Translations under genes and position numbers: made by a program
Shown: positions 20,054-28,592 of the stretch, piece by piece
How positions within the stretch are numbered: position 1 is the first letter of the stretch
Layout: the number at the start of each line of letters is the position of its first letter
The notes under the pieces: generated by a model
What the model saw: the letters and a program-made list of their open reading frames with translations, nothing else
Database searches by the model: none
Told to the model about the DNA's origin: nothing
Assembly (NCBI GenBank): GCA_012727915.1
Contig: JAAYGD010000037.1
Span: forward strand, 1-44,505
Direction of reading: 5' to 3'
DNA length: 44,505 nt
Source of the DNA: Mycoplasmatota bacterium
Lineage (GTDB): Bacteria; Bacillota_I; Bacilli_A; RF39; UBA660

Positions 20054-20758
20054 CTATGGAATTGTAACACTACAAGATACTGAATTGCCCGCATTATCAC
20101 TTACAATATATGTTTTGTTAGTAATACTTTGTCTGTAAATTGCATAGTTTAAACCATCAAAAATATCTCCACTTGCTTTTATTCCACTTCCACCCAAATC
20201 ACTTCTACTTAAATACACGATTTTTCCATATATATCAAAATTAGTATCATTAACTATTGCATCAGTAATTGCAGATATATCAGCTTCATCAATCAAATTG
20301 TTTCCGTTTGCCACATCACACTGGCTAGATATTAAACCACGATTTGTATTAGTTGTTCCTACAATATCAATACACGCTACTGAATCCATTATATCAATTT
20401 CTCCATCATTTGTTGGATCTCCATATTTATATTTTGTTGTAGAACAAGTAGGAGATGTTTTATCAATTCTTACAGTAACTGTTTTTGATGAACTTATAAG
20501 ACCTTTTTCATTTATTGCTCTTACATTAATTGTAGTAACTCCTTCATTACTGACTAAAAAGTTATTACCACTAGTCCAATCCTTAGAGGTATCACCAGTC
20601 ATACTATATTCATATTTTTTAATTCCTGATTCTTCATCTTTTGATCTACTAATTGTTCCACTTACTTGAACCATATTTGTCCACGATTCATAAACTTGAA
20701 TTGTTGGAACACTTGGATTAGTTATATCTTTTGTTGAGACAACAGTATTTGTTATAGT
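20054..20758 (-). pseudogene. 5'-truncated Ig-repeat surface-protein fragment with a dockerin-like insert; paralogous to the C-terminal domains of the 24465-28169 pilin-like protein
   Basis: The frame stays open 28 codons upstream of ATG 20674 (TITNTVVSTKDITNPSVPTIQVYESWTN) up to a TAA at 20761-20759. No signal peptide, only a weak GGA before the ATG. Motifs RIDKTSPTCST, SDLGGSG and YIVSDNAGNS...C.VT match the giant pilin. Confidence 0.6.
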
Positions 20759-24464: not shown

Positions 24465-27400
24465 TTATTGATAACAAGTGTAATAACAAGTATCATAACA
24501 TGTGTCATAACATGTATTATAACATGTACCATAACATGTATTATAACATGTGTCATAACATGTACCATAACATGTGTCATAACATGTACCATAACATGTG
24601 TCATAACATGTATCACATTCATAAGATCTATAACAAGAGCCGCTAGCATAATGAGAAGAACCAAATGTTTTTACACAGAATGCACTGCATCCGCCCGCAC
24701 TAGTTATAGAGTAATTACAACCATAGTTTGATTTTACCGGATCATAGCAATAACATGTGCCAATATAATCCCAATAACAATTACAATCATGTGCATTACA
24801 ACTATATGGATTGCAACTATATGGATTACAACTATATGGATTACAACTATATGGGTTACAACTATACGGATTACAACTATATGGGTTACAACTGTATGGA
24901 TTACAATTATGTGGATTGCAGTTATGCGGATTACAATTATATCCATTACAATTATAAGAAGATACTGTTACCTGACAAGCTCCACTATTTCCCGCAACAT
25001 CATATACTATATAAGATCTTGTAGATGTAACATTATAAAATGTTCCCGCTCCACTTGAATATCCACTTCCTCCAGTGTCAGATGCAGTTACCGTTACTGT
25101 TACACCTGATGTTGAACCAATATTTGTCTTTGCTGTTGAACAAGTTGGTGCTGTTTTATCAATTCTTAATGTATACATATCTGAAGATACACTATAATTT
25201 CCTGCTGCATCTAATGCTCTTACATAGAAGTTCCAATTCCCTCCCCATGTTATTCCCCAATTCGTAGGCATTGCTGAAAAGTTTACATTATCATGAGAGT
25301 ATTGATAACTTGTTACTCCTACTACATCTGATGATGATTGTATTTGATATATATTTCTATTTGTCCATGTTCCACTTGGATATATTGCTCCAGATGTAGA
25401 ATCATATCTTAATGTTACAGTTGGTTTTGTTGGTCTATCTGTATCCGGATTTGCTGCACATGCTGATGTTGCTCCTGCCCATACTCCTCCTGATGCTCTA
25501 CTACTTGCGTCGTATGCTGCGACATGTATCCATGAATAGTATGTTGTTCCAGTATAACTTCCATTTGCTTTTAAATATAATGGATTCATATTTGATGAGA
25601 ATGATGTTCCATCTCCACTCCATCTAAATGGATCTGTTGAGCCACTCCATGCTGATATTTGAGCTGCTGTTGGATATACTCTTGCTGTATCACTATTCCA
25701 ACTTGATACATTTCCTAAATCTCTTGATCTATATGCCGTTCCATCAAATATCCATATTCTATATCCTGCTGCTCCTGTTACAGCATTCCAACTTAAACTT
25801 ACTGTCATACGTCCACTATTTACTGTACCAGTTCTTGATATTGCTGTAAATGTTGGTGATCCTAATGTATTTCCACTTACTGATGATGTTTGAGCTGATT
25901 CTACTAATGTTGCACTCCTTGCTTTTACTTTATAATACATTGTAGTAGACGTTGCTAAACTTCCTTGTACATAACTTGTTGATGTTGTTGTTCCAAGTTC
26001 ACTAAATGTTACATTATCTGTACTTGAATATACTACATATGTTGTTCCTGCTGGATTTGAATTTGCATTCCAACTTACCGTTATTTGTTGTCCTTGTGCT
26101 GTAGTCCCTCTTGTTGCTGCTAATGATGTTGGTACATTTACTGTTGTTGCTACACTTCTACTTCCTGTACCTATATTTCCTACTGCATCAATTATTTCAA
26201 ATGATACTGTATATGTTGTTCCTCCTGCTAATCCTGTATATGTATATGATGAACTTGCACTTGTTGTTACTAAACTTCCATTTAAATAATATTTATATGA
26301 TGATATTCCTGAACCAACTTCATTTACTCCTGCTATTGATAATGCTATTGTTGTTGGTGTTGGTGTTGTTGCAAAACTTGTATATGTTGGTATTGTCTTA
26401 TCTATCTTATATGCGTTTGCTACACTGCATGTTGTTGGTGTGCTTAAATTATTTACATTATCTACTGCTCTTGAACATAATGTATATTGTCCTGTTGCTG
26501 TAAATGTTGCTGTTCCTCCAGACGTTGATGGTGTACATGTTGCTCCCGTTGTTGTACTACAATATTGATAATATCCAAATCCGGATTGAGCATCTGCTCC
26601 TCCTCCTATTGTTATAGGTATATCTGCATTTACCCAATCTCTTGATGTTGGTGTATGTGTTGTTACTGCTGGTGGTGTTGTATCTACTCTATTTATTGGT
26701 GATGTACATACTAATGTATTTAATGATCTATCACTTATTGTTACTGTACATGTATTTCCATGTGCTGATCCCGTTGTACATGGCCCACCCGCTACATTTA
26801 TTCCTGATAATACATCTGTACTACTTGCCAATGTAAATGTTTGTGTTCCACTTGCTTTCCATGGACTTGGATTTGGTGTCCATGTTCCACATACTGGTGC
26901 TGTTCTATCGTATACTACTGTTCCTCCACTTAGTCTTATATCATTTGATATTCCAATATTTCCTGCTCTATCCATATATTCTGTTATTAATCCTACTACA
27001 TCCCCTTGTACTAATGTTGATTCTGCTATTGGTATTGTATATGTCTTTGTTACTGTTGATGTATTTATTCCATTTGTTGTTGTTGGTGTTCTTCCATGTA
27101 TTGTTGATGTTAAACTTCTTACTGGTTCTGTAAAGTTTGTTGTCATTGTTATAATATGCCCATTCTTTGCATACTTATTAAATGTATTATTTGATATTAT
27201 TGTTGTACTTGTTATAAGTGGTTTTATATTGTCATATACTACTAATCCCCCACTTGTTACATTTGTTGCTTCTATTCCTTCATTTTCATATATATCTTCA
27301 TAATCTTTTACCAATACTGATAATGCTTGGCTTACTAATAAACTCTCAAATTCTGGTATTTCATATGTTGCTACCCTTGTATTTCCGCTTCCTGTTACTG

Positions 27401-28169
27401 TTGCTGTTCTTCCTCCTATCAATACTGTTGGATCTGTTACTATCTTACTAAATGTTAAATTTAATGTTACTGTCTCTGAATTCCTTACAAATTTATTGTG
27501 ATATATATTATTACTCTCTGCTATCGCTACTGTTACTGCTGGATATGTACTATCTACTACATTTACTACTCTTGTTACTGGATCTCCTACATTTCCTTCA
27601 TTATCTGTTAAAGAATATGTTAATGTATATGTTCCTATTACATCCTTATTTACTGTTCCTGTTACTACTACTAAATCTGTTATTGTATTTCCATGTCTAT
27701 CAAACGCTACATATCCTGGATCCACATATACTTTTCCTTGCAACAAATAATATGGATCTTCTCCCAATAATATTATTGTTGGTTTTATATCTTCTGTTAA
27801 CAAGCTATCATATACTATCTCAAATTTTACATACAAATCTTCTTCTAATGTTACTTTTACTCTTGCATCTACACCTAGTTTTGTTATATCTTCTTCTTCT
27901 ATTAACCCTATATTTTTTAATGTTTCTAAACTTATTATTGTATAATTTCCTACTATCTTTAAATCTTTTGTTACTTCTTTATTATTTATTGTTGCATAAT
28001 CTCTTGCTGCATCTAATACTAATTCTTCTGTATAACTCTTTGATAATTCATCTGAATTTGTTACCATTCTTCTTATACTTGGAGTTGCTATTAAAACTAC
28101 TACTAAAAGTACTAGTATTGTTGCTAACATCTCTATCATTGTAAATCCAGATTTTTTTGCTTTTTTCAT
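24465..28169 (-). CDS. Giant type IV pilin-like adhesin: prepilin N-terminus, DUF5011-like, several Ig-like/FN3 domains and a Cys-repeat tail
   Basis: Class III signal [15 protein letters not shown] plus hydrophobic helix. ILLGEDPY...YVDPG...[11 protein letters not shown] (DUF5011-like). Repeated D.T.P domain junctions and D.AGN motifs. FN3-like VSW...Y.V...Y.VKA. 32 Cys in the last ~160 aa. Confidence 0.9.
24474..24617 (-). repeat. 12-bp coding tandem repeat (C-Y-[DGNY]-T); 13 Cys including the offset C-D-T unit
   Basis: Plus strand (ataacatgtNNN)n. In-frame Cys codons every 12 nt from 24474 to 24606, plus one at 24615. Confidence 0.95.
24777..24950 (-). repeat. 15-bp coding tandem repeat (C-N-P-Y-S consensus); 13 Cys including the offset C-N-C
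   Basis: Plus strand (ttacaactatatgga)n with synonymous variants. In-frame Cys codons every 15 nt from 24783 to 24948, plus one at 24777. Confidence 0.95.
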
Positions 28170-28190: not shown

Positions 28191-28592
28191 TTATACTTCG
28201 TTTATATCACATAAAACGTTATCGGTTTGATAAGTACCACAAAAAATACACGGAGTGTAAGTATAATTTTCAGTATGAGTTTTAGTAACATATACATATC
28301 CTACACAAAGTGAATTATCAGTTAAATCATAAATTTTAGATAAATAATTGTTATTAGTTAAATCTAATAATCCAATCTTTATTCTTTCATTTAGTATTTG
28401 AGGTAAAGCAATATTATTTTCTAAAACATAATTATTTGATGCTTTTATTATTTCATTTTCTTTTACAGCGTAAGTCTTTAACTTAGTATCATCAATGGAA
28501 ACAAAAACATTTGGAACAATTATTGCCATTATAATTCCTAATACAATTAAAGTTGCTAATACTTCAACTAAGGTAAATGCTTTATAATTCAT
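28191..28592 (-). CDS. Small type IV pilin/pseudopilin-like protein (prepilin-type N-terminal cleavage/methylation domain)
   Basis: MNYKA|FTLVEVLATLIVLGIIMAIIVP, four C-terminal Cys, RBS AGAGGT, upstream TGATATAAT. Confidence 0.88.
   Translation of the reverse strand: MNYKAFTLVEVLATLIVLGIIMAIIVPNVFVSIDDTKLKTYAVKENEIIKASNNYVLENNIALPQILNERIKIGLLDLTNNNYLSKIYDLTDNSLCVGYVYVTKTHTENYTYTPCIFCGTYQTDNVLCDINEV

Follow-up and report, generated by a model that had tools for sequence, protein, structure and literature searches.

A six-cysteine knob on a matched cysteine-repeat stalk in a giant type IV pilin-like protein, with a possible reading as a circularly permuted defensin-like domain

The host protein and its genome

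The window analysed here is a 44,505-nucleotide stretch of DNA from a Mycoplasmatota bacterium (contig JAAYGD010000037.1). On its minus strand, an open reading frame and its profile matches define P0002 (24465..28169), a giant modular type IV pilin-like protein of 1234 aa. A class III signal peptide and the pilin N-terminal helix lie at its start (28080..28169, minus strand; G|FTMIE, of the form G|F...E5). This N-terminus matches TIGR02532 at 20.8 bits, over the NCBIfam cut-off of 16.3, and PF07963 at 21.1 bits, 0.1 bit under the Pfam cut-off of 21.2. A bacterial surface Ig-like domain (PF16403, Pfam E 4e-15) was found at aa 134-204 (27558..27770, minus strand). It is likely the first in a chain of beta-sandwich spacers of about 900-1,000 residues, the further spacers being suggested by composition and by weak NCBIfam matches. 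Directly upstream of P0002 is the gene of a small pilin of 133 aa (28191..28592, minus strand), identified as an ORF with Pfam and NCBIfam matches, which is likely its partner in the same operon.

The genome that encodes P0002 is 873 kb long, in 76 contigs, with 25% G+C and 93.8% completeness. It contains 13 ORFs with a pilin motif and two matches to PF00437 over cut-off, the best of which is a PilB/GspE-like ATPase. Also encoded is an exported protein of 388 aa (L087:1173-2336; G000:C23:4172-5335) with a signal-like start and a CPHC glutaredoxin/thioredoxin-type domain fused to a multi-pass membrane part that holds two cysteines. Its matches are weak, and it could be a candidate extracytoplasmic thiol-disulfide catalyst. 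Near-identical DNA is found in runs from digesters, landfill, bioreactors, wastewater and manure, which account for 20 of the 24 matches listed and come from 12 studies. None of the matches listed is an RNA dataset.

Modular pilins such as PilB of Streptococcus sanguinis bear modules for binding and are proposed to be located at the pilus tip (bioRxiv 10.1101/2021.01.27.428410). P0002 resembles them in its pilin N-terminus with class III signal peptide, in the extra modules other than T4P ones grafted at its C-terminal side (PF16403, stalk and knob) and in the presence of a T4P ATPase in the genome. It differs in its long spacer, in its cysteine-ladder stalk and in having a 53-aa knob where a vWA or lectin domain would stand. 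This architecture suggests that P0002 is likely incorporated at the pilus tip.

Matched stalk arms and exchange of the tip

The knob of P0002 stands between two cysteine-repeat arms. The outgoing arm (24777..24950, minus strand) consists of 11 five-residue CNPYS-type repeats and a final CNC, with a 15-bp period in 11.8 copies. The returning arm (24468..24617, minus strand), made of CDT and four-residue CYxT repeats with a 12-bp period in 12.1 copies, runs to the end of the protein. Each arm holds 13 cysteines.

Searches seeded with the stalk retained 7 of 208 and 32 of 1622 candidates, and the loci comprised 4 viral, 11 genome and 23 metagenome entries; 384 representatives were obtained in a stalk-seeded search, with 150 of them listed. 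Matched CNP[YH]x/CYxT stalks were observed in L018-L051, L005-L008 and P0003-P0041; either arm may come first, and some stalks, such as those of L019 and P0004, are nested. Their hosts are archaeal, Bacteroidota T9SS, Planctomycetia, Nitrospirae, Paceibacterota, Bacilli and phage proteins, and stalk-bearing taxa include Woesearchaeota, Hadarchaeota, Methanosarcinales and Chitinophagaceae. The hosts that can be annotated are exported proteins, namely pilins and T9SS cargo. No Pfam or NCBIfam model reached its cut-off on the stalk in the proteins scanned. Judged from sequence, the stalk is a mobile module. Within the family of the organism the repeat pattern is rare, being present in 3 of 401 genomes with its own genome counted. 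Two matches from G016 (L003 and L004, on contigs C55 and C54) were rejected as stalk relatives, as their repeats are unrelated. These two are contig ends in a bacterial bin where a 12-bp repeat lies beside a large frame, which we take to be RNA-polymerase-large-subunit-like with a giant-virus-like look, and the contigs are possible contamination.

A regular-expression census gave 50 distinct stalk modules, with equal arms in 33 and an even cysteine total in 41; their knobs span 5-102 aa and hold 0-24 cysteines. Fourteen modules without clear borders on both sides were left out, and the remaining 36 fell into 25 clusters, which retain some kinship and are not fully independent. Arms were equal in 22 of the 25 clusters, against a mean of 4.1 and a maximum of 12 in 20,000 permutations, and the knob cysteine count was even in every one (25/25). 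Among the 22 equal-arm clusters the number of rungs was odd in 13 and even in 9. Such parity would be hard to explain except by disulfide pairs, arm-to-arm and inside each knob. Given equal arms and an even number of knob cysteines, the knob is likely a closed disulfide unit. Moreover, the arms occur in reverse order in P0024 and P0030, as is expected for an out-and-back stalk.

Comparison with relatives revealed that the tip is replaced between species. An orthologue in the same gene place in the congener G002 is 82% identical before the stalk, and it has three rungs and an unrelated four-cysteine knob; the gene downstream of it, presumably MutS-like, marks the shared synteny. In G001, a homologue keeps 89.5% DNA identity down to position 25145 and then continues into a different cysteine-rich tip. 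P0012 is 85% identical up to the stalk and carries another knob. Homologues diverge into different tips at a conserved joint, IDKTAPTC (25140..25172, minus strand), which is present in three copies at the G002 locus (L071). Loose contig ends crowd positions 25129-25180 in all four of four runs. On the end of the G001 identity, the joint copies and these contig ends, the joint is likely a recombination point at which tips are swapped; paralogues from other organisms could alternatively explain the pattern.

Within the species, eight runs from seven studies, chosen by near identity, were compared, and a contig spans the knob in five of them. The strain differences in the knob among those listed are K36A, T37K and two synonymous changes, and no cysteine is changed. 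Arm length varies among strains. An earlier note on this DNA had suggested that the variability of the family may lie in the knob, to be recognised by hypervariability relative to the stalk. The first part of this holds across species and paralogues, while hypervariability among strains was not found in the two amino acid changes listed. Since relatives carry other knobs and the knob is stable within the species, block exchange between species and paralogues is indicated.

Two further loci share parts of this arrangement. Elsewhere in the window (20054-20674, minus strand) is a short ORF that lacks a pilin N-terminus and shares an IDKT.PTC joint, with 74% DNA identity to positions 25120-25225 over 107 bases. 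The segment after its joint is, we assume, dockerin-like, and the ORF may be an orphan tip cassette or a remnant. In L086 (G005:C69), a pilin Ig-like spacer runs directly into the returning half of a cysteine tip alone; this is an internal deletion or a misassembly.

The six-cysteine knob and related tips

The knob (24618..24776, minus strand; in-frame translation) comprises 53 residues, aa 1132-1184 of P0002. The earlier note had described six cysteines and the elements of the cysteine-stabilised (CS) alpha-beta motif with CxC moved to the front, and the translation reproduces this description exactly. The cysteines stand at knob positions 8, 10, 20, 30, 34 and 48, giving CxC-x9-C-x9-CxxxC-x11-GxC. 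In a permuted defensin, C8-Y-C10 (24747..24755, minus strand) would be C5xC6, and Y18-G19-C20 (24717..24725, minus strand) would be the aromatic-Gly-C1 start of GXGC-type defensins (PMC12284004, PMC6989792). Similarly, C30-SAF-C34 (24675..24689, minus strand) would be the helix C2xxxC3, which is a strand in the AlphaFold model, and G46-S-C48 (24633..24641, minus strand) would be GxC4. The invariant CS-alpha-beta motifs CX3C (C30-C34) and CX1C (C8-C10) are thus both present, as is the GXC at the C4 equivalent (G46-S47-C48). The linear order C1...C2X3C3...C4...C5XC6 is absent and the permuted order is found in its place. The gamma-core hairpin would be opened by such a permutation. The C34-C48 interval is 13 residues, and the typical defensin C3-C4 interval is about 9-10. 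The knob is neutral, with 3 K/R and 3 D/E, and 12 of its 53 residues are aromatic.

Shuffling was used to gauge how unusual this pattern is. When the knob was shuffled 500,000 times, the rate was 2.4e-4 for this cysteine order within generous spacing windows, 8.3e-4 for any of the four circular CS-alpha-beta orders and 0.12 for no more than CxC together with CxxxC. The true surprise is smaller than these figures, because the pattern was chosen after viewing the sequence. With the cysteines held fixed in 400,000 shuffles, an aromatic-Gly before C20 recurred in 3.3%; when GxC and a Gly following the would-be helix were required as well, the share fell to 0.065%. These features were picked post hoc. 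The cysteine pattern is unusual and not proof.

The GXG-Cys start has been described for 52 peptides (PMC12284004), and actifensin starts with Gly-Phe-Gly-X-Asn, with probable cysteines at 4 and 14 and a Ser after the second (PMC6989792). The knob is like actifensin in having nine residues between C20 and C30 (the C1-C2 equivalents), N21 after C20 and S31 after C30. It is like the GXGC cis-defensins in its six cysteines with CxxxC, CxC and GxC and in the aromatic-Gly before the C1 equivalent. In contrast to them, CxC comes first, the hairpin would be opened into a stalk, the C3-C4 gap is longer, the charge is neutral and the CS-alpha-beta fold is no more than a proposed one. Antimicrobial defensins and actifensins are small free peptides cut from a leader and are usually cationic, whereas the knob is internal and has no leader-mature split. 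As both the order and the free-peptide features fail, the knob falls outside the defensin family as defined.

The other bacterial defensins, classes I-V and two-disulfide CSH peptides such as AdDLP, are described as small free peptides with CSH or CS-alpha-beta motifs from Proteobacteria, Acidobacteria and Actinobacteria (PMC11561630, PMC5116183). Altered cysteine frameworks can change the fold, as shown in PMC5234102, which also sets out the CX3C/CX1C framework. The word stem 'permut' does not occur in the available text of PMC11561630 or PMC5116183, nor does 'pilin' in that of the former, and 'defensin' is absent from the available text of the modular pilin study (bioRxiv 10.1101/2021.01.27.428410). 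Within the part of the literature covered, no work was found that joins disulfide ladders with pilins, none that links circular permutation to cysteine-stabilised defensins of bacteria, and none that describes a permuted-defensin knob; related motifs may be present in the sequence tables of PMC11561630.

Searches for homologues of the knob found none, and among longer proteins no candidate shared three 5-mers with it. A search of 301 genomes of the family gave eight weak matches (E 0.007-0.05), none holding a similar knob. Of the other knobs collected, the most similar was that of P0019, with a score of 67 reached by 1.3% of 300 shuffles and a BLAST E value of 0.046; this likeness was not taken as homology. 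The knob and its parts matched no Pfam or NCBIfam family, and there was no match to PF01097 at the knob, a linear profile that a permuted sequence can match in part at most. Against PDB sequences no defensin was found, and the lone match was a complement-control module at E about 1. The ESM Atlas gave no usable match.

Among 35 knobs of at least 30 aa, the canonical motif order was seen in five and the permuted order in three, where L019, counted in both groups, is an artefact of nested repeats and P0007, L031 and L034 are related to one another. One of the canonical-order tips is that of L052 (538-660; G264:C25), which belongs to the same family, uses the same stalk and reads CxxxC-x14-CxC in a frame cut by the start of its contig. 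Against PDB sequences at E<=10, five of its six matches were named defensins, the best at E=0.0032. These matches indicate that the defensin motif class is truly used on the stalk. By sequence, the L052 knob would be a cleaner candidate than the P0002 knob for a tethered bacterial defensin-like domain, and it resembles the AdDLP type in having the CSH pair without a C1-C4 bond. A search of 401 genomes with it returned itself and three weak matches, two with stops and one unrelated. The canonical-order knob of L031 had two PDB matches, neither a defensin.

Tips with CxC first, then Cx3-4C and then GC were observed in L067 (G000:C59:34118-34762), L068 (G000:C49:22-504) and L072. These are cysteine-rich tips of the same genome or genus, built on a different nested repeat, and are possibly a second permuted-type knob. 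Alignments of the P0002 knob with CxC-first tips of the genus were rejected, being anchored on the wrong cysteines.

Candidate folds and function of the knob

The pilin N-terminus, the matched arms, the even cysteine count of the knob and its replacement between species are all observed directly. That the knob is a swappable binding domain on a matched stalk is, in our judgement, likely. That it both serves in this way and adopts a circularly permuted CS-alpha-beta fold is a tentative proposal, the favoured one among the folds considered, to which we would give slightly less than an even chance. In this proposal, P0002 would be processed as a prepilin, exported and displayed at the pilus tip, and its cysteines would be oxidised outside the cell. 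Arm-to-arm disulfide rungs would then form a stalk that projects the knob. Within the knob, the disulfides would be C8-C30, C10-C34 and C20-C48 (that is, C5-C2, C6-C3 and C1-C4), the nine-residue C10-C20 linker would close the normal defensin termini, and the opened hairpin would continue into the stalk. The termini of the CS-alpha-beta fold lie side by side, so a nine-residue link from C6 to C1 would be geometrically reasonable. The likely job of the knob would be to recognise a ligand exposed on the surface of a partner cell, of a particle or of a polymer, and tip swaps would retune it. A broader reading, in which the knobs are a library of swappable disulfide-rich mini-domains that uncultured small-genome bacteria display at pilin tips on cystine-ladder stalks of adjustable length, with the CS-alpha-beta fold in canonical (L052) and permuted (the knob) form serving as tethered receptor-binding modules, is a distinct possibility that falls well short of an even chance.

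Structure prediction was carried out from single sequence and with no positive control. The best AlphaFold2 model of the knob with its bordering cysteines (C-knob-C, 55 aa) had a pLDDT of 62.4 and a pTM of 0.38, and the other four reached 42-45. It has strands at residues 19-24, 29-35 and 41-48 and no helix at CSAFC. Chou-Fasman values also favour strand over helix for C30-F38 (1.15 vs 0.99). The strain changes K36A and T37K are helix-compatible, a weak point for the permuted fold. A model of stalk plus knob (171 aa) was unusable, its pLDDT being 42 with residues 1-124 under 50, and for the two knob halves folded together the score was 0.02, where the mark is 0.34. With the weak 55-aa model, Foldseek gave no match at E<=0.001 (best 0.85), and among 48,161 chains VIA-align found none with Z>=5, the highest value being 3.8. 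No CS-alpha-beta defensin was seen in the fold-search matches listed, which, with a weak model, excludes nothing. The earlier note had proposed the permuted CS-alpha-beta fold and named a missing helix at CSAFC as grounds for refuting it. The cysteine pattern and other sequence features fit the proposal, while the weak model is a three-stranded meander and its fold searches returned noise. As there is one weak model, built with no alignment and no control, the missing helix was counted mildly against the fold.

The same stalk and binding role may instead be combined with a disulfide-rich beta-meander or another fold, the defensin pattern being coincidental, and we regard this as a real but minority possibility. 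It would account for the all-beta character of the sole model over pLDDT 60, and it accords with the diversity of the stalk knobs in the census, with the chance rate of CxC plus CxxxC in shuffles and with the complement-control module as the sole PDB sequence match. However, the model is unsupported by the other four and its fold matches are noise, and the joint fit of GxC, aromatic-Gly-C and the spacings would be left unexplained.

In an unlikely alternative, the knob is an unpermuted helix-hairpin derived from the canonical-order knobs of its relatives, with C48 as the first cysteine of an eroded CxC (CYC to CYR). C48 would pair with C30 and C34 with C8 on a neighbouring strand, and C10-C20 would close a side loop. 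The C34-C48 gap of 13 is indeed nearer to the CxxxC-to-CxC gap of 14 in L052 and L031 than to the defensin C3-C4 interval, an alignment sets C48 on the first cysteine of the L052 and L031 CxC, and both AlphaFold models have a strand near C20. This derivation requires one cysteine lost and several gained, and leaves the perfect CxC at 8-10 unexplained; moreover, the alignment is 23-38% identical with gaps, and the profile built from its four rows matches nothing in PDB.

An antimicrobial role, which the earlier note had also raised, is unlikely for an internal domain of a 1234-aa protein with net charge zero. In its specific form, a warhead that is antimicrobial or binds lipid II and is delivered by the pilus or freed by proteolysis, we consider it highly improbable. 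The bacterial CS-alpha-beta peptide actifensin does bind lipid II (PMC12284004), the aromatics before Gly-C1 and after C6 are retained in the knob, and an organism with so small a genome may live at the expense of other cells. Nevertheless, the knob is joined at either end to a cross-linked stalk and shows no evident site for cleavage, and most other stalk knobs are not defensin-like. Further, the plectasin His, Lys and Tyr positions (PMC12284004) are mostly not kept at the same spacing when aligned by the plectasin cysteine numbering, and even the free bacterial defensin xanthusin-1 is reported as inactive (PMC11561630).

Least probable of all, and hardly to be expected, is that the cysteines form no disulfides and serve instead as zinc or iron ligands or, as in the Cys-Xaa-Xaa-Xaa repeat peptides, as radical-SAM targets, a view that suits the anaerobic digesters, landfill and bioreactors in which the organism is found, the CxxxC repeats of the returning arm and the weak arm matches to TIGR04114 and TIGR04117, but meets scores under cut-off (18.5 bits vs 20 for TIGR04114; 21.4 vs 50 for TIGR04117), a likeness in one arm alone of a large exported protein, hosts that are exported wherever annotatable, and rungs odd in 13 of the 22 equal-arm modules, which fits pairs and not four-cysteine sites.

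To return to the swappable binding knob, a parallel in design is the bovine ultralong CDR-H3, in which an antiparallel stalk holds out a knob of 3-6 kDa that has 2-5 disulfides in varied cysteine patterns (PMC7498065). The likeness is an analogy of design with no homology: the P0002 stalk is built of repeats with matched cysteines and can be adjusted in length, and variation lies between species and paralogues and is not somatic.

The origin of cis-defensins in bacteria is described as an open question in PMC11561630. If the permuted fold is true, the defensin scaffold would withstand having its hairpin opened and being grafted to a stalk, and bacteria would employ it as a tethered recognition module. 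If the reading of the tips as a library is true, the knob would be a natural permutant of a fold found described in one order alone. It would also represent a non-immune, adhesive use of the defensin fold with a bearing on the origin of that fold, and the library of tips would be the prokaryotic equivalent of the stalk-and-knob loop in cattle antibodies. Irrespective of how the knob folds, the CNPY/CYxT stalk and its exchangeable even-cysteine knobs form a compact display device of bacteria, archaea and phages. Knobs of this size can be synthesised, which opens the ligands of these uncultured organisms to testing, and nature supplies in them scaffolds for disulfide-rich binders.
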